Below, in pieces: positions 708-16,802 of a stretch of DNA of 26,227 bases. The translations under genes and the position numbers were made by a program. Positions within the stretch are counted from its first letter, which is position 1. Every line of letters starts with the position of its first letter. Below the pieces are notes generated by a model. It searched no databases. It worked only from the letters and a program-made list of their open reading frames with translations, and was not told the origin of the DNA. This DNA is from a virus (taxonomy: Duplodnaviria; Caudoviricetes). Location of the stretch: positions 1-26,227 of the IMG/VR virus record IMGVR_UViG_3300036860_000191. The stretch is one strand, 5' to 3'.

Positions 708-908
708 ATGGCAATACCAGACAAGGTAGAGAGTAAACTCAGGGCTCAAGCAACCATCATCCATTCCGCACTGGATGATATCAAGCGGATCGTGGTTCCT
801 GATGACAGCGACCATTACGTTTCACATATCTCCGTCTCTCGGGACATCCGCGGAACACTTCGAGTCTCTTACAAGTGCAGTTTGGTAATCCCCTATAACA
901 TACAGTAA
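708..908 (+). CDS. Hypothetical protein, 66 aa (first gene of the GC-rich operon)
   Basis: ATG preceded by purine-rich GGAAGGGGAATGAAGG. Packed 11 nt upstream of the next ORF. Confidence 0.6.
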   Translation: MAIPDKVESKLRAQATIIHSALDDIKRIVVPDDSDHYVSHISVSRDIRGTLRVSYKCSLVIPYNIQ

Positions 909-919
909 GGAAAAGAAAA

Positions 920-1090
920 ATGAACCTCACGCAATCGACAGCCTACGCCGTGCGAGACATCATCAAGGAAGCCATCAACCAGCTAAAGGATAGCTGGGAC
1001 GGAGACGAGTCGGTCTACACCATCGAAGTCAAGCGGATTGATGACCCGGACTTGTATGTGTTTCTCGCAAACAAAAGCCTTGACATCTAA
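920..1090 (+). CDS. Hypothetical protein, 56 aa (not in the ORF track)
   Basis: Translates as MNLTQSTAYAVRDIIKEAINQLKDSWDGDESVYTIEVKRIDDPDLYVFLANKSLDI. TAAGGA RBS at 906-911, and C/G-ending codons like its neighbours. Confidence 0.7.
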   Translation: MNLTQSTAYAVRDIIKEAINQLKDSWDGDESVYTIEVKRIDDPDLYVFLANKSLDI

Positions 1091-1148
1091 GCCGTTCTGT
1101 GAGACACTAAGACCCTAACGACGCACCTAACAGAAGAGGATAGAAACC

Positions 1149-1550
1149 ATGGCAACGGAAACCGTCGTCAAGCCCGAGCCGACCAAGACGAAGAACGAGA
1201 TTCCTGATCCTTCCAGCTGGTCCAACGTCTCGGGAACGAAACTCCAGGAACGGGACTTCTACAGCGGAACGCCCAAGAGCGGCGAAGTCTATTCCTACAG
1301 GGAAGTCGCAATCCAGGACGGCCAGTCGATCAAGCCTTCCGAGCTGACGAAGCTTTTCGGGTTCAACGAATCCGATCACGTGAACGCCATCTTGGCTTTC
1401 GAGAATGATCGCCGGAAGGTCACAGCTCGATCCGCCGGAGTCGTGGAACGCAAGGCGAAGGATCCCAACCAAGTCGATCTCGCCCTTGCCATTCTCGCGG
1501 CCGCCCAGGGAAAGACCTTGGCCGAAGTCAAGGCAATGCTCGGCGTCTAA
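1149..1550 (+). CDS. Hypothetical protein, 133 aa, strongly biased GC3 codons
   Basis: AGAGGA RBS. Codons almost always end in C or G (AAG, GTC, ATC, GCC). Followed by a terminator. Confidence 0.85.
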   Translation: MATETVVKPEPTKTKNEIPDPSSWSNVSGTKLQERDFYSGTPKSGEVYSYREVAIQDGQSIKPSELTKLFGFNESDHVNAILAFENDRRKVTARSAGVVERKAKDPNQVDLALAILAAAQGKTLAEVKAMLGV

Positions 1551-1566
1551 TCCGTAACCTAAAGGG

Positions 1567-1603
1567 AAAGGCCAATGCTCGCTTAGGTTGGCCTTTTCTT
1601 TTT
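1567..1603 (+). terminator. Intrinsic terminator, possibly bidirectional
   Basis: Stem AAAGGCCAA (1567-1575)/TTGGCCTTT (1588-1596) followed by TCTTTTT, with a purine-rich 5' flank. Confidence 0.8.
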
Positions 1604-1746
1604 CCTTCCAGCCTACTATACAACATACTATACCAGGGTTTAGTATACTTCTTTGTATACCCCTATGGGATCTTTTACGGGTCCCATTTTTTCGCAGGTA
1701 GCCGAAGGCTAGTACTTCCATACCGTCTCTCTCAAAATTCTTTTTC

Positions 1747-1810
1747 TTTTAACCCATCTTATTTTAACAATCCTTTTTTCTTTTTAACAATCCTTTTCTT
1801 TTTAAAAATC
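1747..1810 (+). repeat. Four degenerate TTTTAA(C/A)AATC repeats in a T-rich tract
   Basis: Copies at 1747 (TTTTAACCCATC), 1762 and 1782 (TTTTAACAATC) and 1800 (TTTTAAAAATC), separated by T/C runs. Confidence 0.7.
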
Positions 1811-1812
1811 TC

Positions 1813-1835
1813 CTTACGATGTAGTGGATGAGCCT
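1813..1835 (+). repeat. 23-bp dispersed direct repeat, copy 2
   Basis: CTTACGATGTAGTGGATGAGCCT matches 293-315 at 20/23 positions and ends 1 nt before the -35 hexamer. Confidence 0.8.
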
Positions 1836-1836
1836 C

Positions 1837-1865
1837 TTGACGTTGGAGGGTTATGGCGCTATATT
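1837..1865 (+). promoter_or_regulatory. Sigma70-type promoter of the packaging/structural operon
   Basis: TTGACG-N17-TATATT, then AGGAGAGG (RBS, 1872-1879) and ATG at 1890. Confidence 0.75.
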
Positions 1866-1889
1866 TTCCACAGGAGAGGTTGTTGAGTC

Positions 1890-2483
1890 ATGGGTCTAAG
1901 TTTATTAATCAGTGAAGAAGAATTAAAAGAAAGAATGGAGAAATCTGCCATAATCTATAAAAGAATGGGAAAGGGAGGTTTGCTGAGGGTTGATAGGGGT
2001 GGATACAATAATGGAAGAGGGAATGGTAATCTAGGAAAAGCTCAGTTTGTTAGGGAGTTGATTGCCGCGGATGCCAAACAATATGGAATTTCAAAAGCTG
2101 CTGAGAGCTGGGATTGCTCTTTAACAAGTGCATATTCATATAAAGATGGTAGAAATGGGACCCATACAAAGAAGGGTTCCAATGAGGAAACTGTTAAGAA
2201 ATCCGAGGAAATCTTAAAAGATAGACAGGTTAAGATTATTGAGTCCACAACATTAAAACTGATGGAAGTCATGGAATCCATGAATGTAAAACTTATATCA
2301 TCTGATCCTCTCAAACAAAGTATCCTCGCAAAGAATTTAGCAACCGTGGCTGAAAAGATGAATAACAATGGTGGGAATAGAGATGATGGAGTTACATTCA
2401 TTGTTCATGTTCCCAAGCTGAGAAAAGTAGAAGATTTCGGAGAAGCGGTAAGAGTTATTGAAGCTGAGGTTATCAAGGGATAA
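1890..2483 (+). CDS. Probable terminase small subunit
   Basis: First gene of the packaging operon. It has an HTH-like segment (GISKAAESWDCSLTSAYSY), a helical middle and a C-terminal beta strand (VTFIVHVP), as in TerS architecture. Inferred from synteny. Confidence 0.55.
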   Translation: MGLSLLISEEELKERMEKSAIIYKRMGKGGLLRVDRGGYNNGRGNGNLGKAQFVRELIAADAKQYGISKAAESWDCSLTSAYSYKDGRNGTHTKKGSNEETVKKSEEILKDRQVKIIESTTLKLMEVMESMNVKLISSDPLKQSILAKNLATVAEKMNNNGGNRDDGVTFIVHVPKLRKVEDFGEAVRVIEAEVIKG

Positions 2484-2623
2484 TGAGTATTAAAATACTA
2501 ATGAGGCCAATCTGTTGGGTGAGAGGTCATAAATATTTTACATCAAGTCATGGACCTTATCCATCCGTTACAGTAATCTATACATGCAATAGATGTTTTA
2601 AGGTTAAAGAAGAAAATGTTTAG
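2483..2623 (+). CDS. Small Cys/His zinc-binding protein, 46 aa (DUF1660-like pattern)
   Basis: MSIKILMRPICWVRGHKYF...YTCNRCFKVKEENV shows a C-x3-GH ... CxRC pattern. TAATG overlap with the upstream stop. Confidence 0.65.
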   Translation: MSIKILMRPICWVRGHKYFTSSHGPYPSVTVIYTCNRCFKVKEENV

Positions 2624-2699
2624 TAAGATTTGGAAGTTCATTAGAGAGAAGATATTACCAATGGCGATGAGAGAATACATTGATAAAAAGACCAAGTGA
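2616..2699 (+). CDS. 27-aa cationic amphipathic peptide
   Basis: MFSKIWKFIREKILPMAMREYIDKKTK. It overlaps the upstream ORF end, has a GTGA overlap with the next ORF, and fills the gap exactly. Confidence 0.55.
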   Translation: MFSKIWKFIREKILPMAMREYIDKKTK

Positions 2700-3139
2700 A
2701 AGTAAAGGATCATGCAAATGTAATCGTCTTATCCATGATGGGTGTTGGATTAACAACACTCGCCTTTTACTTACCAATCAAGCAATGGGGGCTGTTGATA
2801 GGAATATGCGCAGGATTAATCATAACAAGCATAATAATATACGAAGCTTGGGCAATCACTAATGAATATCCAGGAGATACATTAAGTGAAGCATTATGGA
2901 GATTATCCAGTCGTCCAATTGTACCTTGGTTATTCGGTGGTGCGAGTGAATGGCTTATTCTTAGTCATACGTTAACTGATCCACATTTGATCGCGGCATG
3001 GTTCTTCTTACAAGGACATTTCTTCTTCCAGGCGCAGAAAGAAAAAGAGAAACTAGATATGAAGGATCAGGTAGATGTAGCTAAGACTGGAATATTAAAG
3101 ATCAGCGGTGAAGCATTACAGTTAGTTCCAGTGGATTAG
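2696..3139 (+). CDS. Multi-pass membrane protein (holin-like candidate)
   Basis: Three to four hydrophobic segments and a charged C-terminal tail. Confidence 0.7.
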   Translation: MKVKDHANVIVLSMMGVGLTTLAFYLPIKQWGLLIGICAGLIITSIIIYEAWAITNEYPGDTLSEALWRLSSRPIVPWLFGGASEWLILSHTLTDPHLIAAWFFLQGHFFFQAQKEKEKLDMKDQVDVAKTGILKISGEALQLVPVD

Positions 3140-3148
3140 GAGTTTGTG

Positions 3149-3271
3149 ATGGCTTTTGCTTTAAGAGTTGCAGCAGCAATCCTTTTCGCAATTGGAGTTC
3201 ATGAGGGAAGTATAAGACTAACAAATGCAGGTTTGTGTTGCTTTGCAATTAGCTTTGCATTGACACGTTAA
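3149..3271 (+). CDS. 40-aa two-helix membrane peptide (not in the ORF track)
   Basis: MAFALRVAAAILFAIGVHEGSIRLTNAGLCCFAISFALTR. GGAG RBS at 3139-3142. Ends 1 nt before the next ATG. Confidence 0.65.
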   Translation: MAFALRVAAAILFAIGVHEGSIRLTNAGLCCFAISFALTR

Positions 3272-3272
3272 A

Positions 3273-3611
3273 ATGATCGCTGCCTTAATCCTATTCTTAT
3301 CAACGTTAGCCGAAGTACACAACAAGTCTATTCCATCCTCAAACGTCGTTGTAAGCCTAAGAATAGCTGAGTTGAATGGTGCAGTTAAAACGACTTGCCT
3401 GAAAGACCCCAATGGTAATAAATCGTATCTCATTGAGATTAGCTTATTCGGTTTAAGCCGAACGGATAATGAGATAAAGCATATGGCAGTCCATGAACTT
3501 TGTCATATCATGCTACCTGAACATAATAAGATCCTATGTAGTTTAGGTGGTAATTTAGATAAGATGGAATGGGAAGCTGATCGCTGTGCATTCTCCCTTT
3601 TATCCAAATGA
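3273..3611 (+). CDS. Signal-peptide-bearing minimal zincin metallopeptidase
   Basis: Hydrophobic N-terminus MIAALILFLSTLA, HELCH (HEXXH) motif, and a downstream EWEAD third-ligand motif as in gluzincins (M48/ImmA-IrrE type). Confidence 0.75.
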   Translation: MIAALILFLSTLAEVHNKSIPSSNVVVSLRIAELNGAVKTTCLKDPNGNKSYLIEISLFGLSRTDNEIKHMAVHELCHIMLPEHNKILCSLGGNLDKMEWEADRCAFSLLSK

Positions 3612-5269
3612 CAATCGAAGTTTCCAGTGAGTTAAAGCCGAACTCTAAACAACAGGAAGTATTCCTGGGTTTGCCTGCGGGAGAGAATGGATTCTGGGAA
3701 GCATTCTATGGAGGTGAAGCTGGTTCAGGTAAAACATTCTCCATAGTAACATTACCTCTCTTCCTAAGATGTCATGACATTTTCGGATTCCGCGCAACGA
3801 TCTATCGTCGTTCATTCCCTCAAATCAATGAAAGCTTAGTACCAGAAAGCCGGAAATGGTATGGCAAATTCGGCTTCAGATACAATGAGTCGGATCACGT
3901 TTGGAAACACCCAAGAACGAAAGCTGAAATAGCCTTCGGATTCATCGAGCATGAGAAGGATGTTTTCAAACATGATTCTGCTCAATACCATTACCTAGCA
4001 TTTGAGGAACTAACTCAATTTACTGAGTTTATGTATAAGTATCTCCTTCATCGTAATCGTTCTGATATAGCTGGATGGGATGCAATATGCCGCTCAGTGG
4101 GTACCCCAGGAGATATAGGAAATACCTGGGTTAAAAAACGTTTCGTATATCCATGCCGCGAGGGAATGAAACCCATTGAATACTCCCTCCCCAATGGTAA
4201 GATTGGGCGTAGAATATTCATCAAAGCCCGTAGGGATGATAACATTGATCTCATTAAGAATGATCCCTCATATGGTGATCGTTTAGAATTACTGCCATCG
4301 GAAGCATTGAAGAGGGCGAAGAAATATGGTGATTGGGATGCATTCCAAGGTCAGGTATTTACTGAATTTCGTACATATCATCATCCTGATGAACCAGACA
4401 ATGCAATCCACGTAGTACAACCATATGAGATTCCAGATTGGTGGCCTAAACTAATAGCAATAGATTGGGGATATCTTCATAATACATGGGTTGGTTGGGG
4501 TGCCGTATCTCCATCCGGTAAGTTAGTTATATACCGGGAGTATGCAGTTAATCAGACTAAGATTAAGGTATGGGGTCCGCATGTAAAAAGATTGAGTTCT
4601 GATGATGGAAATATACGTAGGATTGTGGGGGATCCGTCTGGATTTCGTAACATTGGTCTTGAAAGAACAATAGCAGACCAAATGATGGAGGCCACAGATT
4701 GGGTTATTGAAGAAGCTGACAATGATCGAATCGGTGGCAAAATGCTTCTCCATGAATTAATGCGATGGGAAAAAGCCCCTCCATCATTGAATGCAAAAGA
4801 AGGCTTCGACCCAGAATATGCTAGTAGATTGATGAGAATGAAGGGTGATGAAGCCTATCATGAATATTGCATTCAATATATGCCTGAGGAGGTTAATGAA
4901 TCTCTACCTAAGTTGGAGATATTCGATAATTGCCAGATGTTAATAGACAGTTTGATGACAGTAACATATAATAATAAAAGCAAGAGTTCCAATATCAATG
5001 AAGAGGATGTTAAGAAGGTAGATGGTGATGATCCATATGATGGCCTTAGATATTTAGCTAAGGCATATGAGAGATTTATAGGGATGTCAGGGGATGAGTA
5101 TGGTAGAAGGTTAGAGGTTCAAGGTGCCATTGATAAGCTTCTCAAGAGTGGTGATTATTATGCATTCAATAATCAAATGGATGAGATTGAAGCTCTTCAA
5201 GAGAGTAGATCAAACCGCGGATATGGAAAGTATAAGAGAATCAGGAGACACTCAAGCGTTGTCCATTAA
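3608..5269 (+). CDS. terL: Terminase large subunit
   Basis: Q motif (PNSKQ), Walker A GGEAGSGKT, Walker B LAFEE, coupling motif (VGTPG), and RNase H-type nuclease residues IAIDWG and DDPYDGLRY. Confidence 0.95.
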   Translation: MTIEVSSELKPNSKQQEVFLGLPAGENGFWEAFYGGEAGSGKTFSIVTLPLFLRCHDIFGFRATIYRRSFPQINESLVPESRKWYGKFGFRYNESDHVWKHPRTKAEIAFGFIEHEKDVFKHDSAQYHYLAFEELTQFTEFMYKYLLHRNRSDIAGWDAICRSVGTPGDIGNTWVKKRFVYPCREGMKPIEYSLPNGKIGRRIFIKARRDDNIDLIKNDPSYGDRLELLPSEALKRAKKYGDWDAFQGQVFTEFRTYHHPDEPDNAIHVVQPYEIPDWWPKLIAIDWGYLHNTWVGWGAVSPSGKLVIYREYAVNQTKIKVWGPHVKRLSSDDGNIRRIVGDPSGFRNIGLERTIADQMMEATDWVIEEADNDRIGGKMLLHELMRWEKAPPSLNAKEGFDPEYASRLMRMKGDEAYHEYCIQYMPEEVNESLPKLEIFDNCQMLIDSLMTVTYNNKSKSSNINEEDVKKVDGDDPYDGLRYLAKAYERFIGMSGDEYGRRLEVQGAIDKLLKSGDYYAFNNQMDEIEALQESRSNRGYGKYKRIRRHSSVVH

Positions 5270-5540: not shown

Positions 5541-5919
5541 TCCGGGATGGACTTTTACTTCTCTTAAACATTATATCATATCCCTCCTGAATGAGAGAGA
5601 TAAACGATATGAACAGAGATTTAGAGCACAACAAGAAGCTATTTCTAAAACTGAAAAAGCATCTGAGTTAAGGTTTCAAAGTGTTAATGAATTTCGTAAT
5701 ACTTTAGCAGATCAAGCAAAGAGTTTTGCTAGTTCAGAGGCTTTAAATAATCTCAGGGATAGAGTGGATAAATTGGAAAATATACTCAGTGCACTTAAGG
5801 GTGAGGATTCTGGTGGATTAAGTTTAAAGAATGAGAGCAGAGCTAATATCTCAATCTTGATAGCTGTGATGTCTGCAATAATTGGCATAGTAGTTTTCTT
5901 AATGAGGTTTGCTAAATGA
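5533..5919 (+). CDS. Coiled-coil protein with a C-terminal transmembrane anchor
   Basis: Long heptad region followed by ISILIAVMSAIIGIVVFLM, a topology seen in XhlA/holin-associated phage proteins. Confidence 0.75.
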   Translation: MSDPGWTFTSLKHYIISLLNERDKRYEQRFRAQQEAISKTEKASELRFQSVNEFRNTLADQAKSFASSEALNNLRDRVDKLENILSALKGEDSGGLSLKNESRANISILIAVMSAIIGIVVFLMRFAK

Positions 5920-6662
5920 ACATCCCTGTCTCTGCCTCTGCCTTTATCATAACAGTATTACTGATAGGCGCCAAAGATTGTAAAGATATACCATATCCAT
6001 TTCCATCACCAACTCCATTACCAATTCCATCTTGTGTTCCATGCCCTTCACCGACTCCAATCCCAACTCCAGAACCAACTCCATCAATAACTCCTGAACC
6101 TTGTCATTGTTTACCAGAAATGCCTTGTCCTCCTGGTCAAGTTAGGGAATCTCATTTAGGTCCAGGTCCATGTTTCTGTAAGATTTATGGTGTTTGTATT
6201 CCTGATCCAGATGCATCGGCTCCACCATATCCAGATCATTGTCCTAAAATGATTTGTTGGAAACCTCAGAAAACTCTCTTCGATCCAAACAACGTGAAGG
6301 TTGGTGATAAAATAACCATTGATAGCACTGAGTTTTTCGGAGTTTGCCTACCAAGAGGGAGATGTAATGCAGAAGTTAATATTGTATGTGGCGGAAGGCC
6401 ATGTGAAGATCCGCGGGGAGTAAGATGGTATCAAAAATCTGGTCCTGTTATTCCTCAAGATGGAAATAACTGGAAGGTTCATGCGAATGAGAGTGGAGAT
6501 GGAAGTAATGAATATGGGTATCAGTTACAGGTGAAGATCCCTGCCAAAGGAACTTATGTAATCTGCGTATCCATTCTTCCTGATTTGAGAGACGCATTAG
6601 GGAAGCCTGTATCATTTGAACCCGACGCAGGACGTTGTACTGATTTTACTGTAAGTCGATGA
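5916..6662 (+). CDS. Exported Pro/Cys-rich protein, possibly a lipoprotein
   Basis: N-terminal hydrophobic stretch, then Cys22, a PTP linker and 17 Cys in total. ATGA overlaps at both ends. Confidence 0.75.
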   Translation: MNIPVSASAFIITVLLIGAKDCKDIPYPFPSPTPLPIPSCVPCPSPTPIPTPEPTPSITPEPCHCLPEMPCPPGQVRESHLGPGPCFCKIYGVCIPDPDASAPPYPDHCPKMICWKPQKTLFDPNNVKVGDKITIDSTEFFGVCLPRGRCNAEVNIVCGGRPCEDPRGVRWYQKSGPVIPQDGNNWKVHANESGDGSNEYGYQLQVKIPAKGTYVICVSILPDLRDALGKPVSFEPDAGRCTDFTVSR

Positions 6663-9076
6663 CATACAATTCTAAAAAGCCTGAATGGCTTGAAAAATCC
6701 GTTAAAACAATTTTCGACTCCTGCAATAAGGAGTGTGATAATAAGCGTAGATTTCTAGCTCCATTCTGGAAAAGAGCTGAATACTATTGGAATAACATCC
6801 ATGATATCTATTGGGATGCTGTATCATGGGATTGGCGTACCTTTGAGGGTGATAATCAAGATGAGGGATTTGAAGAATTACTAGATTCCAACAAAACCAT
6901 AAGTACATACCGCGCTTATGGTGAATCCATTGTTTCCGCGGCAACCATTGGCAAACTCAGCATTAGATTTTTTCCAGAGGATGCCGAAGATCCACTTGAT
7001 ATTGACAAGTCACGTATATACAGCGACATTGGTGATTATATCCAGCGTATGAACAACATCATTGATTTGAAGAGGAAGGCTTTCGTAATTCGATGGAATC
7101 AAGGATTGGTTGGAGCTTATACATATTTCAAGAGGGATAAGGATGAATATGGTGTAAGAAGGAAGCCTAAGATTGTTACTGAGGGTAGCATTAATGTAAA
7201 GAATGTTTGCAAAGAGTGTGGTTATGAGGAGGTTGAGAAAGAACTATCTGATCCGATGGATATGATTGCTGATACTGTTGAGGGTAATCAGCCTGATATA
7301 AATTCTATTATGAATGAAGGTTTACCGGATATTAATCCAATGCCTTCTCCTGATATGCCTCAGTCTCCAATACCAATTCCAGGTATGGATATAGGAATGG
7401 GTATGCCTCCCTCTCCTGATATGGGAATGGTATCTGGAATGGAGATGGGTATGAAAGAAGGAGAATGTCCAGAATGCGGATCAATGATGGAAAAGGAAGA
7501 TGAGATAATTGAAGATTCAACCCAGGATGGTTATGAAGAAGAAGATAAAGGAATGTCAGTCATTGAACTCTATCCTCCTCTATCTATTAAAATCCCTCAT
7601 TATGCAACAAAGCCATCCCAGATTAATTATGTAATCCTATCATCTGAGTTACATTTCTCTGAAGTAACAGCATTGTATCCAGATGATGAAGAGGAAATTA
7701 GTCAGGGTGATGTAGATAGTATTGAGGCCAATGAAAGGAATCAGGCAGATTACTACGGAGATTCTGCTGTATCAGAAAATCTAGTAACACTTACAAGGGC
7801 CTGGTTTAAACCTTGTATGTATAACATCATTGCTAAGGATAAAGAAAATCTAAAGCAACTTAAGAAGAAATATCCAAATGGATTTAAAGCAACCCTTGTT
7901 GGTAAAGACAATCGTTTACTGGATTGTGAACCTGAGAAGTTAGATGACCATTGGACATTCCTTAAATCTCCAACTGATACTCATATATACGCTAAAGCAT
8001 TGGGTGATCCAATGGTTCCCATCCAAGATATTGAGGATGATCTTGTATTCTTAACCTTAGATACAATACGTCATGCGGTTGGTGAGACATTCATCAATTC
8101 AGACATCATTAATATGAAGACATTGCGAAGCATGAAGAGTATGCCTGGATCGTATACTCCTGTTACTGTTAAGAGTAATAGACCAATCTCCGATAACTTC
8201 TTTACAACCAAGAATGCATCATTAAGCAGGGAAGTGGCTGAGTTAGCACAATATATGCAAGAAAAAGGTCAGCTTGTTGTTGGAGCTTTTCCTTCCATAT
8301 ATGGTGGTCAATTCGAAACTGGTTCAAAAACGTTAGGAGTTTATCAAGAATCTCGTACTCAAGCATTGCAAAGAGTAGCAATTCCAGCTGATTGTATTGA
8401 TGACATGCTAGCCGAAGCAATCTTCAAAGCTGTTAAATTATATGAAATCAATATGAGTGGGGATGAATCTTATGCAGTTGAGGAAGGAGGGAGTTATAAA
8501 AATGTAAATCTGAGGAAGCCAATTGGGGGGAATGTCAGTCGCGTTGAGGTAGTTAAGAGTGAACAATTCCCCACAACATGGGAACAAAAGCGTGCATTCA
8601 TTATGGAATTGCTTGGTATGAATTTGGAACCAATCCAAGCTGCTGTATTTGCTCCCGAGAATGTTGGAATGATTAGTAAGATAGTTGGTATTCCTGAATT
8701 GAAGGTTCCTGGTGAGAACGATCGTAATAAACAACTTCATGAAATTCAAGAATTATTGATGGGTGAACCAATCCCATCACAGAATACAGATCCAATGACA
8801 GGGATGCCTGCTGTTGATCCGAACACTGGAATGCCAATGATGACAAGTTCAGTTCCAATTGATAATGATGTTGATAATCATTCAATTCATGCTGGTGTGA
8901 TTACAGCCTTTGCAGTTTCTCCGGAAGGAATGAGAGCTAAGAAAGTCATTCCTCAGGGTTATGAGAATCTAATGCTACATCTGAGAGAGCATAAAGCTGC
9001 TGAGGCAATGATTATGCAACAGCAACAACCAATGCAGGTTAATGAAGAGGAGAAAGAGAATGTCGGAGTCAGTTAG
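6659..9076 (+). CDS. Portal protein with a split zinc-ribbon insertion
   Basis: 805 aa, located between TerL and scaffold/capsid. Helical, with DPMVPIQD and a Q/M/P-rich tail typical of podovirus portals. Carries CKEC and CPEC motifs. Confidence 0.85.
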   Translation: MTYNSKKPEWLEKSVKTIFDSCNKECDNKRRFLAPFWKRAEYYWNNIHDIYWDAVSWDWRTFEGDNQDEGFEELLDSNKTISTYRAYGESIVSAATIGKLSIRFFPEDAEDPLDIDKSRIYSDIGDYIQRMNNIIDLKRKAFVIRWNQGLVGAYTYFKRDKDEYGVRRKPKIVTEGSINVKNVCKECGYEEVEKELSDPMDMIADTVEGNQPDINSIMNEGLPDINPMPSPDMPQSPIPIPGMDIGMGMPPSPDMGMVSGMEMGMKEGECPECGSMMEKEDEIIEDSTQDGYEEEDKGMSVIELYPPLSIKIPHYATKPSQINYVILSSELHFSEVTALYPDDEEEISQGDVDSIEANERNQADYYGDSAVSENLVTLTRAWFKPCMYNIIAKDKENLKQLKKKYPNGFKATLVGKDNRLLDCEPEKLDDHWTFLKSPTDTHIYAKALGDPMVPIQDIEDDLVFLTLDTIRHAVGETFINSDIINMKTLRSMKSMPGSYTPVTVKSNRPISDNFFTTKNASLSREVAELAQYMQEKGQLVVGAFPSIYGGQFETGSKTLGVYQESRTQALQRVAIPADCIDDMLAEAIFKAVKLYEINMSGDESYAVEEGGSYKNVNLRKPIGGNVSRVEVVKSEQFPTTWEQKRAFIMELLGMNLEPIQAAVFAPENVGMISKIVGIPELKVPGENDRNKQLHEIQELLMGEPIPSQNTDPMTGMPAVDPNTGMPMMTSSVPIDNDVDNHSIHAGVITAFAVSPEGMRAKKVIPQGYENLMLHLREHKAAEAMIMQQQQPMQVNEEEKENVGVS

Positions 9077-10431: not shown

Positions 10432-11703
10432 ATGGGAAGTCAGAGTGAAGCTGCTGTATCTGGCTTAGAAATTGAAAAGGTCAGACCTATTGTGCGGTCT
10501 GCCTTTGATTATGACGCTTTGTTTTATGGAGATCTTAAAAAGAAGACTCCTGAAATTATCAGTAAAAGAGATATGAGAATCCCTATTAGGTTGAAGCCAG
10601 GTGGTAAATTCCGCCATGTGAATCCAGATGGTGGAGATTACGGTAGGGGTTCTGGAATCACATATGATAAGGCAGTTATTGGTGTTCAGCATCTTATGGA
10701 AGCTGTTGAATGGACAGATGAATCCGAATGGGCTACTGACAGTGAAAGGAAAGCTGTTCTAGATAGCTTCAAAGATGGATTAGCAAAAGCGCTTGAGGAA
10801 ATGCAACGGAATCTTGATTCTGTATGCATGACTGATGGCACTGGTGTAATCGGTACAGCAACAGTCTATGCTGTTGCTGGTGGAGTTGCTGTTCCTGGAG
10901 CCGATAGATTAACATTCACCACAGATGGTTTCAGGGCAAGGCTATTCCGATTTGACATGGATGTCAACGTTTATAATGCTGCCCTAACGGTTAACAGAAC
11001 GTTGGGAGCAGAAAGAACGATTGTATTCCATGATCCAGCCAATAACATCATCGAAATCACACCATCGTTAGCAACAGGAATTGCTACAGATAAGATTGTC
11101 TTATCTGGGTTGACAGCAACACCTCCTGTAAGCATTTTTGGTGTTCCATATCACCATTCTAATGCTTCTACAGGAACATGGCTTGGATTCAACCGAGCAA
11201 CAACTCCTGAAATCCGAGCGAATAGAGTGAATGCTGCTGGTCCATTTGCTCTCCCACTATTCCGTTTGGCATTGAATAAGCCAGGAGACAGGACAGGTAA
11301 GAAGAAGATTAAGTATACTGCTTGGACACATCCTGCTCAAACAGATGCTTATGAACAGATTACTGTCCTTAGTACGATTGTTAATCAAATGCCAAATGGT
11401 AAAGGCGCTGATATGTTCTATGATCCAGATAATATGCAAATGGCTGGAGTCCCTGTTAAAACATCTTTCAGCTGGGATCGTACTAGGATAGATTTGATCA
11501 GCAGGGATGCATGGGGAAGGGTTGAAATGAAACCCGCTGATTTCCTCAAGAAGAATGGAAAATATATCTTTGAAGGTCGCGGTGTAAGCGGTGGTGTTGC
11601 TGGATATAATATTGTTTATCCAAGGGTAAGCACGAATATCTATATTGATAATCCAGCAGAAGGAAGCTATATTGACGCCTTAACTGTCCCAACGGGGTAT
11701 TAA
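10432..11703 (+). CDS. Major capsid protein (HK97 fold inferred)
   Basis: 423 aa, after the scaffold. It has a long spine-helix-like segment ending in DGTG and a beta-rich insertion, and is followed by a small gene and a terminator. Confidence 0.85.
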   Translation: MGSQSEAAVSGLEIEKVRPIVRSAFDYDALFYGDLKKKTPEIISKRDMRIPIRLKPGGKFRHVNPDGGDYGRGSGITYDKAVIGVQHLMEAVEWTDESEWATDSERKAVLDSFKDGLAKALEEMQRNLDSVCMTDGTGVIGTATVYAVAGGVAVPGADRLTFTTDGFRARLFRFDMDVNVYNAALTVNRTLGAERTIVFHDPANNIIEITPSLATGIATDKIVLSGLTATPPVSIFGVPYHHSNASTGTWLGFNRATTPEIRANRVNAAGPFALPLFRLALNKPGDRTGKKKIKYTAWTHPAQTDAYEQITVLSTIVNQMPNGKGADMFYDPDNMQMAGVPVKTSFSWDRTRIDLISRDAWGRVEMKPADFLKKNGKYIFEGRGVSGGVAGYNIVYPRVSTNIYIDNPAEGSYIDALTVPTGY

Positions 11704-12660: not shown

Positions 12661-12997
12661 GCCATCGCAACAACAATTGGTTGCTGTTGAAGATACATTA
12701 GGTGCGGCTGATGGAACAAAAGTATTAGCTGCTGCTCCTGGTGCTAATAAACGTATTGTTGTTGTTACCTTGCAAGGTTCTGTTATTGTATCCGCGGCAT
12801 CAGCTTGTGATATTGAGTCAGGAGATGGTGTTATTGAGTTGATTAGATTCGGTGCAAGTCCTGGATTACATCAGTTTACTAGAATGTGGATTGGTGGATT
12901 TCCACTTCCTCTCAATCAACCTCTAATTATCCAACCAGATGCACCTGGTCCTTCTGTTCATGCTACTGCTGAATATTACATTGAAGGTAAGCAATGA
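12650..12997 (+). CDS. Probable small virion beta-sandwich protein, 115 aa
   Basis: AAGGAG RBS, alternating beta pattern, structural context. Confidence 0.7.
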   Translation: MAARPSQQQLVAVEDTLGAADGTKVLAAAPGANKRIVVVTLQGSVIVSAASACDIESGDGVIELIRFGASPGLHQFTRMWIGGFPLPLNQPLIIQPDAPGPSVHATAEYYIEGKQ

Positions 12998-13191
12998 CGC
13001 TGGTTGAATTTAAGAATAGAGTTAATAGGTTGTGGGTCATTGGGAGGAGGAGCAAGATTGCTTATGTACGGTTTTATCCAAATCCTGGATTTATGCTTCC
13101 ATTATGGAAGAACAAAAGAGTAAGATATAGTAAATTCTACGGTTGGAAAATAACTAAAGCTCCGACTGATTCTAATCCAAGAGGTCTATAA
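12994..13191 (+). CDS. Basic hypothetical protein, 65 aa
   Basis: ATGA overlap upstream and TAATG overlap downstream. Confidence 0.65.
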   Translation: MTLVEFKNRVNRLWVIGRRSKIAYVRFYPNPGFMLPLWKNKRVRYSKFYGWKITKAPTDSNPRGL

Positions 13192-13637
13192 TGCCGCAGT
13201 TCGCCAGACCAGATGCCGATACGTTAATAGGAAACTTCCAGGATCAAGCTGGAGGAACGACTAATATCTTCAACTCAATTGATGAATCTGCGGCATCAGA
13301 TGCTGATTTTATTCGCTCTCCAGTATCACCAGTTAATGAAGTTTATGTTTGTCGTTTATCTGACGTTACTGATCCAATATCTTCTTCATCCCATATAATG
13401 AGAATGAGAACAGCGAATGATGTTGCATCCGGTGGTGAAACACTTAATTATACCCAACAGCTTCGTATGACGTATGTTAATGAAGGTTCTCAAGGAACAT
13501 TAATCGCTTCCCAAAGCCGAAATGGCGTAGCAGATGCTACATGGACAACCTCAACCTACACCCTAAGCGGTGCAGAAGCAGATGCTATTACTGATTATAC
13601 TGCATTGTTCTACAGGTTTGTTGTTAATAAACCATAA
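13191..13637 (+). CDS. Probable virion jelly-roll-like domain protein, 148 aa
   Basis: T/S/A/D-rich beta protein (MPQFARPDAD ... AITDYTALFYRFVV). GAGG RBS. Confidence 0.7.
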   Translation: MPQFARPDADTLIGNFQDQAGGTTNIFNSIDESAASDADFIRSPVSPVNEVYVCRLSDVTDPISSSSHIMRMRTANDVASGGETLNYTQQLRMTYVNEGSQGTLIASQSRNGVADATWTTSTYTLSGAEADAITDYTALFYRFVVNKP

Positions 13638-13643
13638 ATAGGG

Positions 13644-14795
13644 ATGGCAACTAGATTAAGATTTACGTCGGAAGCAACTGCTCCGGCAGTTTCCCCTGCA
13701 TTACAAACTTATCTTCATAATGCACCAGCTACTGTTAGAAGGGTTTTAAAATCTTCAGACAGTTCGGCTTTATCGACAGTAGCTTATAACCCTGATTCTT
13801 CGGATCATATAGTAGCGGGAGATTCATTAGCATGCCAATTTGTATCGAATCCTATGGTTGCCGGCATAACATTTACTGTACTTGATACGATTAAATGGTG
13901 CCTTCAATGTTTAGAATCTAATGCTGGAAACAATTTAAATCTTCAGCTGTTCATCTCAATCGTATCTCAAGATGGAGCCACTGTAAGGCATACATTAATT
14001 GGAAAAACTGAAGAACCAACTGAATTAGCTACAGTTCTTACAAGTAGATTCCATTCTGCATCACAAACTGGAACAGGATATACAACTGTATTAGGTGATA
14101 GATTAGTTGTTGAGGTAGCTGTTGAAGGAACACCAGTAGCAACAAGTGGAGTACAAGCCCATAATGCATCTATTAGATTTGGAAACAATGGTGCTGGTGG
14201 TGATCTATTAGAAAATGATACTCAAACAGGAACTACTCTTAATCCTTGGATTGAATTTGTTCCTACAATTACATTCGTAACTCCAACAAAAGGACAAGTA
14301 TCATGGGCGGAATTTGAGATACCCCTTGTAGGCACTAAAGGAAGGATCAGTTGGTCTGAATTTGAAGTTCCTTTAGTAGCTACAAGAGGAAGAATTAGTT
14401 GGACTGAGTTTGAAATTCCATTAGTACCAACAAAAGGGTTAGTATCTTGGGCTGAGTTTGAAATCCCAACTGCATCAAGTACACCAACTAGGGGTTTAGT
14501 TTCCTGGGCAGAATTTGAGGTTCCAGATCCTCCTACGCCAACGAAAGGATTGATATCTTGGGCAGAATTCGAAATACCTAATTCTCCCACACCAACAAGG
14601 GGAAGATCATCATGGATGGAATTTGAGACTCCATTCGTAGCTACAAGAGGAAGAATATCATGGAGTGAGTTTGAAGTTCCAAACTTCGGTTCCCCTCCAA
14701 TAGGAGCACCATCTGATAGTAATATAAATATTATGATGGCTTATATTCGAGATCTTTTTTCGATTGTTTTGTTTACGTTAAACGTCGTTTGTTAA
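13644..14795 (+). CDS. Probable virion protein: N-terminal beta domain plus 8 tandem SWxEFExP repeats
   Basis: About 210-aa T/S/G-rich domain, then eight T[KR]Gx[VIS]SWxEFE[VIT]P units and a hydrophobic C-terminal tail. Confidence 0.8.
   Translation: MATRLRFTSEATAPAVSPALQTYLHNAPATVRRVLKSSDSSALSTVAYNPDSSDHIVAGDSLACQFVSNPMVAGITFTVLDTIKWCLQCLESNAGNNLNLQLFISIVSQDGATVRHTLIGKTEEPTELATVLTSRFHSASQTGTGYTTVLGDRLVVEVAVEGTPVATSGVQAHNASIRFGNNGAGGDLLENDTQTGTTLNPWIEFVPTITFVTPTKGQVSWAEFEIPLVGTKGRISWSEFEVPLVATRGRISWTEFEIPLVPTKGLVSWAEFEIPTASSTPTRGLVSWAEFEVPDPPTPTKGLISWAEFEIPNSPTPTRGRSSWMEFETPFVATRGRISWSEFEVPNFGSPPIGAPSDSNINIMMAYIRDLFSIVLFTLNVVC
14286..14681 (+). repeat. Intragenic tandem repeat, 8 units of 16-19 codons
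   Basis: Protein-level conservation with diverged synonymous positions. Linkers are LVG, LVA, LVP, TASSTP, DPPTP, NSPTP and FVA. Confidence 0.9.
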
Positions 14796-16124: not shown

Positions 16125-16802
16125 ATGCCAACAGGTACTGTAATAGCTGATGAAGCAAGAAGTAACCATTTGAATGATACGGCTGCGGCTGTTTTTACTA
16201 ATGCAGCTTTATTGCCAATCATCAATGCAAAATATAGAGATTTACAGGATATGCTGGTTGAGAATGATGTACCAGTTTTTACTGAAAAGAATACTGTTAT
16301 AACAGTACCTGCTTTAGCAGTATCCATACCTCCAGGAGGAGGAGCTGGACAATTACCTACTAATTTTGTTGAACCCATAAAATTATATGAAAGGGCTGTT
16401 GGTCAAGGGGAAGATCAATGGGTTCCTATGAGTGAGAAGCAATTTGAACCCAATGCATTGAAGGATACTATGCTCTTATATTGGGTTTATAGAGAGGAAG
16501 AAATTAAGTTGGTTGGAGCAACATCTATAAGGGAAGTATTGCTATGGTATGTTAAATCATTAGCAGCGTTGGCTGCAATTACGGATAACGTTGCTATTGG
16601 GAATTCTCAGACATATATGGCAGCTGCGGTTGCTGCTCAGGCAGCTTTAACAATTGGACATAATCCATCCCTCGCTGCTAACTTGCAGCTGTTAGCTAAT
16701 AAGCATTGGGAATCACTATTGAATCGTGCTACTAGAAAGAATCAAAGTTTGGTAATAAGAAAAAAGGGTTGGCGTCGTCCAAGACGTATTCTTGTTGGAT
16801 AG
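16125..16802 (+). CDS. Probable head-tail adaptor (P22 gp4/T7 gp11 analogue)
   Basis: 225 aa with two N-terminal helices, a beta middle, a C-terminal helix pair and a basic tail. Upstream of the nozzle-like gene. Confidence 0.65.
   Translation: MPTGTVIADEARSNHLNDTAAAVFTNAALLPIINAKYRDLQDMLVENDVPVFTEKNTVITVPALAVSIPPGGGAGQLPTNFVEPIKLYERAVGQGEDQWVPMSEKQFEPNALKDTMLLYWVYREEEIKLVGATSIREVLLWYVKSLAALAAITDNVAIGNSQTYMAAAVAAQAALTIGHNPSLAANLQLLANKHWESLLNRATRKNQSLVIRKKGWRRPRRILVG

Follow-up and report, generated by a model that had tools for sequence, protein, structure and literature searches.

A strand-less jelly-roll domain and a tandem array of its terminal strand: a predicted strand-complementation pair in uncultured tailed phages

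In this study, we report the computational analysis of two adjacent genes found in a stretch of 26,227 nucleotides of a virus of the Caudoviricetes (Duplodnaviria; IMG/VR virus record IMGVR_UViG_3300036860_000191, positions 1 to 26,227), referred to as the window. The first gene encodes a 148-amino acid (aa) protein whose predicted fold is a jelly roll devoid of its terminal strand, and the second a 383-aa protein, the scaffold, with eight tandem copies of a 13-residue motif. At the level of sequence profiles this repeat is the domain family's own last strand and, according to predicted complexes, it very probably completes the 148-aa domain. The full model, in which the strand-less domain docks on the eight repeats as beads, is considered likely on the same modelling basis. 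Both open reading frames (ORFs) have the coordinates and sizes given in an initial annotation made from the sequence alone, to which the 65-aa gene upstream of the 148-aa gene has been added. The features of the locus are the following:

12994..13191, plus strand: basic 65-aa ORF (15 K/R, 2 D/E), whose stop runs into the start codon of the 148-aa gene (TAATG)
13191..13637, plus strand: predicted strand-less 148-aa jelly-roll domain, the socket or bead (AlphaFold2 (AF2) model, fold matches and relatives)
13470..13496, plus strand: additional loop at about Y95/E98/G102, seen mostly in free-standing copies of the domain (loop motif counts)
13644..14795, plus strand: 383-aa scaffold ORF
13644..14276, plus strand: N-terminal 211-aa domain of the scaffold (ESM Atlas model)
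14286..14681, plus strand: eight tandem putative donor strands, or plugs (periods of 16, 16, 16, 19, 18, 18 and 16 aa)
14682..14795, plus strand: 37-aa C-terminal tail of the scaffold, ending in a hydrophobic stretch (from its sequence)

The 148-aa domain and its missing strand

The 148-aa protein ends ITDYTALFYRFVVNKP, and the early stop of its gene is real. The stop lies 12 residues past an ITDY motif in 113 of 119 close relatives and 13 residues past it in two more, with no motif match in the remaining four; since 113 relatives end alike, a frameshift or a sequencing stop between the 148-aa and 383-aa genes was ruled out. The terminal strand is carried by none of the 119. The family is large, the domain profile finding 7,155 clusters at 50% identity (E up to 0.001), with 430 relatives of near length among 449 candidates and 31 longer ones among 587. 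Many relatives run on past ITDY through a short loop into a VSWAELEVP-type strand in cis, in agreement with the RVSWAExEVP-type continuation that the initial annotation had named for related phage domains and with its expectation that some homologues would carry the repeat motif in cis, where it takes the form SWxE[LF]ExP. Among the long or representative proteins examined, 70 had one complete domain and 24 ended strand-less.

Modelled alone, the 148-aa protein reached an AF2 predicted local distance difference test (pLDDT) of 94.8 and a predicted template modelling score (pTM) of 0.89. Against 48,161 solved chains, the model matched galactose-binding-like and carbohydrate-binding module (CBM) jelly rolls with Z of 7-8, and the solved targets were left unmatched over their last strand, the alignments breaking off some 15 residues short of the target ends. 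The model of P0297, a relative with a complete domain followed by five spare strands, aligned with the same targets 14-22 residues further, to their ends, with Z higher by about 1.5-3. Thus, from the 148-aa model to that of P0297 the aligned range of 4bj0_A passed from 2-150 to 2-167 (Z 7.4 to 10.4, root-mean-square deviation (rmsd) 3.1 to 2.8, aligned residues 115 to 128), that of 2zew_A from 2-131 to 2-146 (Z 7.6 to 10.2) and that of 2yc2_A from 1-119 to 1-134 (Z 8.2 to 9.6). Because the P0297 strand brings the alignments to the ends of the targets, the piece missing from the 148-aa protein would be the terminal jelly-roll strand, and the incomplete beta domain proposed in the initial annotation is thus supported by structural alignment.

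Other searches gave little by way of a name. No Pfam or PHROG match was obtained for the 148-aa, 383-aa or 65-aa proteins; Pfam over 22 relatives gave a best E of 0.028 to PF14741, below the cut-off; and PDB sequence profiles showed nothing under E 0.5. A search of 50,697 GenBank phage records, at tblastn sensitivity only, found no match to the 148-aa protein or P0297. Foldseek gave no match at E 0.001 or better on PDB and 11 on BFVD, mostly uncharacterised phage proteins (best TM 0.70). Residues D10, D31, E32 and D37 were conserved in an alignment of relatives (A1) and are only candidates for a structural calcium site.

The eight repeats of the scaffold

The motif T[KR]GxxSWxEFExP matches eight times in the 383-aa protein, at residues 215, 231, 247, 263, 282, 300, 318 and 334, with linkers of 3, 3, 3, 6, 5, 5 and 3 aa, just as had been described. 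A strand profile built from 22 in-cis strands of relatives only, with no repeat included, scored the window repeats at 19-30 bits, while shuffled residues gave 0.08 hits per 100,000 at 14 bits or more; therefore, the repeats are homologues of the strand and not chance matches. One other match of at least 8 bits was present in the window, at 13.6 bits in a minus-strand frame. The repeat DNA is 56-85% identical pairwise, so the array is not an assembly artefact, and the divergence falls mostly at third codon positions (50% identity versus 78% at first and second positions), which indicates that the repeats are old and under protein-level selection.

The initial annotation had also seen a similar strand, NPWIEFVP, closing the N-terminal domain of the scaffold. 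This resemblance did not hold: the segment scored at best -4.9 bits on the strand profile, closes a separate domain and was rejected as a ninth copy or donor strand. In the ESM Atlas model, residues 1-211 align with PepX_C-like folds at TM 0.59-0.65, under the threshold for naming, and they are modelled as a complete jelly roll of another family that appears interchangeable among relatives. Domains 49-53% identical to it precede the arrays in loci L019, L150 and L156, and other arrays have an unrelated N-terminal domain or none; a viral scan with the scaffold domain found no relative, those mentioned having turned up among other loci only.

In relatives, the repeat period was 16 in 124 of 150 intervals and never below 15, and the number of repeats ranged from 1 to 16 by profile count. 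Their arrays also end in short variable tails, and the hydrophobic tail of the scaffold could possibly be an anchor. In addition, several observations on related arrays deserve mention. The array of L020:4452-5570 (the same as L187) is broken by a stop and continues in the next short ORF, which could reflect readthrough, a scaffold encoded in two parts or an error of sequencing. L037:1-915 has a triple repeat of another type (PR.TQY.LEVL), upstream of a protein with a strand-less end (897-4001); it is possibly a second plug subtype that the strand profile misses. Short hydrophobic leaders of the MSLLL type start many arrays or sockets (L001:5536, L005:6348, L011:3158, L033:5957, L030:1822) and short hydrophobic tails with MLLGVG-like motifs end many family proteins; both may be further strand-addition tags for anchoring.

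Predicted docking of the repeat into the domain

The complex prediction, suggested in the initial annotation, was carried out with two copies of the 148-aa protein and a 32-residue stretch of two repeats, calcium being included but not scored. One repeat was placed in the groove of each domain with an interface score (ipSAE) of 0.86, compared with 0.16 for the best of three controls. Of 157 solved complexes, 116 attained the ipSAE mark used, compared with 2 of 215 mismatched pairs; these counts are a rough guide for the present complex, which was run with its own alignments and with calcium along. The runs agreed in at least 98% of contacts and the partner pLDDT was 95.

In this model, the inserted repeat is flanked by strand 69-75 of the socket on one side and by residues 1-7/40-47 on the other. 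It pairs in antiparallel fashion with strand 69-75 and with residues 40-43, and its register shifts by one residue, as a bulge, at the repeat Ser. The repeat Trp lies opposite R73 and I30 and the repeat Glu opposite R71, and the docked repeat touches core residues 52, 54, 56, 87, 89, 91 and 139-145; two sockets fit on repeats 16 residues apart. R71 and R73 are conserved at 90% or more in alignment A1, composed mostly of strand-less sequences, and at the first site the repeat Glu does not vary across 68 repeat pairs. A role of this Glu as calcium ligand, like the CBM32 Glu of PMC12926856, was rejected, as the model pairs it with R71. Since no sequence relative was found in PDB, the score of the complex is not explained by a remembered template; it must be noted that intact jelly rolls are common in PDB and may guide the model. 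The repeats did not fold confidently by themselves, as had been anticipated: in the monomer model of P0297 the first strand had a pLDDT of 89-96 and the spare repeats 50-55. Taken alone, the docking step, in which a repeat completes the 148-aa domain, is given high confidence as a prediction.

Co-occurrence of strand-less domains and spare strands

The initial annotation expected truncated domains to co-occur with repeat genes, and the distribution among loci is in line with this. In the viral set (80 viral loci plus the window, 71 once near-duplicates were dropped), 44 loci had a strand-less domain and 35 of these also had spare strands, which were present in none of the 27 loci with complete domains only. 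By form, they accompanied 22 of 25 free-standing genes, 19 of these with three or more, and 11 of 17 C-terminally fused domains, nearly all with one. In the metagenome set (80 loci, not de-duplicated and overlapping the viral set), strands were found in 34 of 69 strand-less loci, in 24 of the 28 where at least 1.5 kb lay downstream, and in one of 10 complete-only loci. Among 27 GTDB loci, neither the 23 complete-only nor the four strand-less ones had any. A repeat-array search of five records found nothing and was too blunt an instrument, since a profile scan of the same records detected three strands in G003.

Intermediate architectures

Several proteins of the family stand between the complete and the split forms. 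Domain and strand are found in one chain with an insert of about 220-240 aa between them (L029, P0172, P0190, P0275, P0327). Nested virion proteins of about 1,000 aa have three domains in series, of which only the last has a strand next to it, after which come two others spaced by 15 residues; six of the seven tested match phrog_3287 and we take them to be tail-nozzle-like. The number of domains equals that of strands in 21 of 22 such nested tail proteins (19 with three of each, P0301 with two of each and P0167 also 2+2 by score), P0222 having three domains and two strands. Finally, P0297, P0268 and P0311 combine a complete domain with 5-10 spare strands, and in L153, L182 and L189 a gene of this kind follows a free strand-less gene. 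This series (insert-separated, nested, complete plus spares) suggests that the array could have arisen by tandem duplication of the terminal strand.

Family members were found inside virion proteins (phrog_3287, phrog_31, and the central tail fibre J in L031). The phrog_3287 proteins resemble Russian dolls, with two or three jelly rolls whose last strands come in a row (P0125, P0127, P0152-P0167, P0192, P0219, P0266, P0301), and the first domain of several has a further insert (phrog_9998). Strand-less domains also occur at the N-terminus of cargo proteins, namely P0146 (with a GDSL-like domain), P0269, P0278, P0295 and L028:3756-4796; in L028, three spaced strands lie on the same record about 5 kb from the strand-less domain.

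A linked gene for a small basic protein

Relatives of the 65-aa ORF immediately precede the free domain in loci whose other genes differ. Of 62 distinct free strand-less genes, 47 have the gene as their neighbour, usually at a distance of 0-6 bases; it adjoins none of the 22 C-terminally fused, four internal and 67 complete copies (0/93 together); two complete-copy loci hold it, placed by their free gene. This count leaves out 36 of loci L001-L051, mostly shorter copies of later loci. A reverse pattern scan for the gene gave 12 loci (four already known and two near-identical), in 11 of which the free domain adjoins, once with the order swapped, while in the twelfth the contig ends. The ORF encodes a protein, given that third codon positions vary freely and the other frames are mostly closed. 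In part, the linkage may be due to inheritance, as most free genes fall in one clade.

The 65-aa relatives have a net charge of +7 to +25, and the 148-aa domain is acidic (9 K/R, 17 D/E). Most free domains also have an extra loop, whose motif was found in 51 of 66 of them, in 2 of 67 complete and in 0 of 23 C-terminally fused domains. From this linkage, the 65-aa protein is likely a third component, a putative binding partner that would serve the free-standing domain as chaperone, cap or additional subunit. No resemblance to the donor strand was seen by eye, and the idea that it acts as a placeholder mimic of that strand was not supported.

Genomic context of the window

Judged by its gene content, the window is a structural region of an uncultured tailed phage. 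It contains a terminase large subunit at 3608 (phrog_979, E 3.5e-34), a major head protein at 10432 (phrog_14242, E 0.003) and an SU10-adaptor-like protein at 16125, whose PF24175 match (E 3e-5) is under the cut-off. The 148-aa and 383-aa genes are positioned between the capsid and adaptor-like genes, and the gene order points to a podovirus-like layout. The closest synteny was found in L033 and L191, with a capsid 63% identical and four following genes in common; their scaffold has an unrelated N-terminal domain and 10 repeats, and other genes lie between socket and array. Given that synteny is kept and the scaffold differs, the latter appears to have been swapped faster than its neighbours.

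Two further ORFs of the window, both with a hydrophobic N-terminus, are recorded here. One (5916-6662, plus strand, between the terminase and the putative portal) encodes a Cys/Pro-rich protein of 248 aa with no Pfam or PHROG match and no relative among the fetched loci. The other (3273-3611, plus strand, 112 aa) directly precedes the terminase and has an HExxH motif, which we take as the sign of a possible small metallopeptidase. In a related phage, methyltransferase-, glycosyltransferase- and radical-SAM-like ORFs, so classed by eye, stand among the structural genes (L025:1143-2968 and 7338-8410).

Proposed working and alternative explanations

The following sequence of events is proposed. 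The 65-aa and 148-aa proteins would be made together by co-translation, and the basic 65-aa protein would bind the acidic free domain, either shielding its empty groove until docking, as a chaperone, or remaining as a third subunit. The unloaded array would be a flexible string; sockets would load onto it, each repeat supplying the last strand and completing the fold, so that a single scaffold chain could carry as many as eight domains and form a beaded appendage, probably located on the virion. Loading would stiffen the array and multiply a CBM-like, most likely glycan-binding, surface, with the valency set by the number of repeats. The loaded string would be fixed to the virion through the tail or the N-terminal domain of the scaffold, and the beads most likely serve avid binding to host surface glycans or, otherwise, form a stiff stalk. 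The virion location is likely because of the structural-gene context and of the family members inside virion proteins, rather than from the window copy itself. The same joint is likely used one to one, a cargo ending in a strand-less domain being hooked onto a single-strand partner.

Several points weigh against this model. The structural evidence consists of predicted models throughout, the complex covers two of the eight repeat sites together, and the strand-less 148-aa model is confident by itself. The CBM-type fold held in common is no sign of sugar binding. A spare strand was not seen in 9 of 44 strand-less viral loci, in 4 of 28 metagenome loci with at least 1.5 kb downstream or in any of the four strand-less GTDB loci, and G001, a 35-kb record estimated to be 76% complete, has only one 14-bit candidate strand. 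The trait is clustered on the tree, with 6 state changes (22 when shuffled), and well-supported branches offer one independent pair, the sign test not being significant (81 rows classed as internal were left out of the first tree). As the trait clusters by kinship and independent pairs are too few, the co-occurrence is taken as consistent evidence and not as a p-value, and the Fisher p of 4e-12 for the viral set, calculated on kin that are not independent, is not used. The nested tail proteins constitute one related family, in which the pairing of strands with domains is read from counts only. In addition, 15 of 62 free genes have no 65-aa gene next to them, so that this gene either is not universal or has diverged past detection.

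Among the alternatives, the one with most in its favour accepts strand complementation as real, so that the docking step is common to both explanations, and takes the beads as purely mechanical, a stiff spacer or stalk that projects the N-terminal domain of the scaffold and has no ligand of its own. The constancy of the 16-aa period, with 15 as its minimum, the free variation of the N-terminal carrier domain beside a conserved bead, and the likeness of the nested copies in tail proteins to length extenders speak for it. However, the arrays of L005, L014, L018 and L022 have almost no other domain to project, and the free beads retain a conserved extra loop and a linked gene; overall, we regard it as rather unlikely.

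It is improbable that the pair works outside the virion, in an assembly at the cell surface or inside the cell during infection, in which the scaffold tail would be anchored in a membrane and the 65-aa protein would bind either nucleic acid or membrane. Such a role would suit the hydrophobic C-terminus of the scaffold, the strongly basic 65-aa protein and the position of the genes away from obvious tail genes in some relatives, but the structural-gene context of the window and the family members embedded in virion proteins argue otherwise, no signal peptide is evident in the sequences, and most relatives have short tails that do not look like membrane segments. Self-assembly of the repeats (as a beta-solenoid, trimeric fibre or amyloid-like stack), with a separately stable 148-aa protein related merely by common ancestry, is very improbable despite the regular 16-aa period and some spare repeats drawn as strands in the monomer model, in view of the low pLDDT of these repeats, the single spare strands of many loci, which cannot form a solenoid, the lack of arrays in the 27 complete-only loci, the matching domain and strand counts in nested proteins and the score of the complex above its controls.

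Docking of strand-less domains on the array is thus the preferred explanation. A wider proposal, which we advance only tentatively, is that widespread uncultured phages use a secretion-free kit of three genes, namely a socket, an array that sets the valency and a mini-chaperone of 50-70 aa that hands the socket over, and that the joint hooks enzymes and fibres onto the virion, so that fold completion would yield a cellulosome-like adhesion apparatus with exchangeable parts.

Comparison with known systems

In the TasA/TapA fibres of Bacillus subtilis, a jelly-roll subunit is completed by the beta-strand of another chain, which shields a hydrophobic groove (PMC9674648). The likeness with the phage pair is a jelly-roll fold completed in trans by a strand. 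TasA has donor and acceptor in one chain and forms a head-to-tail polymer, whereas the phage acceptor is free of donor and the donors stand in tandem on a second chain, as a comb of fixed valency; moreover, the missing strand of the phage domain is C-terminal, the system is phage-encoded and no sequence link was found.

The pilins of chaperone-usher and type V pili are Ig-like. According to PMC7616799, these pili (type 1, CupE and type V) have a beta-sandwich with a gap that is filled by a donor strand from another chain. Their subunit chains are built by an usher and a periplasmic chaperone or by a protease, none of which is encoded here. The likeness supported here is the strand complementation, and not the pilus-type exchange step with displacement of a strand; no Pfam family of usher, PapD-like chaperone or secreted pilin was found in the 17 window proteins around the locus. 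By analogy, the part of the pilus chaperone may be played by the 65-aa protein. The own donor strand that each pilus or TasA subunit carries was found in none of the 119 close relatives, and the strand hits of the window fall on the scaffold. An acceptor without one strand of its fold, as in donor-strand complementation, was found by alignment and in predicted models, and it is only in the complex model that a donor from another chain is seen to occupy an internal slot, packed against the core.

The fibronectin-binding protein (FnBP) of S. aureus forms a tandem beta-zipper, in which linear repeats bind tandem modules by adding strands (PMC7480013). As in FnBP, the phage repeats would form a disordered linear array in which every repeat contributes a strand to a module. 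The FnBP repeats extend complete host modules, whereas the phage strand is a homologous and integral part of its partner's fold and is encoded by an adjacent gene; in the complex model the partner is incomplete and the slot internal, and not the edge of a complete host module. In cellulosomes, one scaffoldin with repeated sites recruits separate modules, cohesin and dockerin being both folded domains. Cargo can likewise be fused to the phage docking module, as in P0146, and the docking site differs in being a 13-residue strand and not a folded domain. The completed domain shares its fold with CBM4-, CBM16- and CBM6-type jelly rolls (4bj0, 2zew, 1uxz), 127-128 residues being aligned at a Z of about 10 and an rmsd of about 3 Å, with 6-16% identity, no Pfam match and many unrelated jelly rolls within 1 Z.

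With no head-to-tail donor, no usher and no host module, the pair works like donor-strand complementation and is a member of none of the known systems. No phage system of this kind was found in the open-access literature searched. The chemistry is known, and what is undescribed is the comb topology on phages and the linked third gene: cellular fibres are known to use donor-strand complementation to build chains head to tail, and the phage version has many donors on one chain and free acceptors. The 65-aa protein bears on how an incomplete fold stays soluble without a periplasmic chaperone. If the model is true, phages would tune the number of adhesins by repeat expansion and swap cargo by fusing the socket, and the model would account for a huge family that lacks annotation and in which all the evolutionary steps can be seen: domains that are whole, separated from the strand by an insert, nested, whole with additional spares, or fully split. 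The 148-aa protein and a peptide of 13-16 residues would then be a natural tag-and-catcher pair with built-in multivalency.
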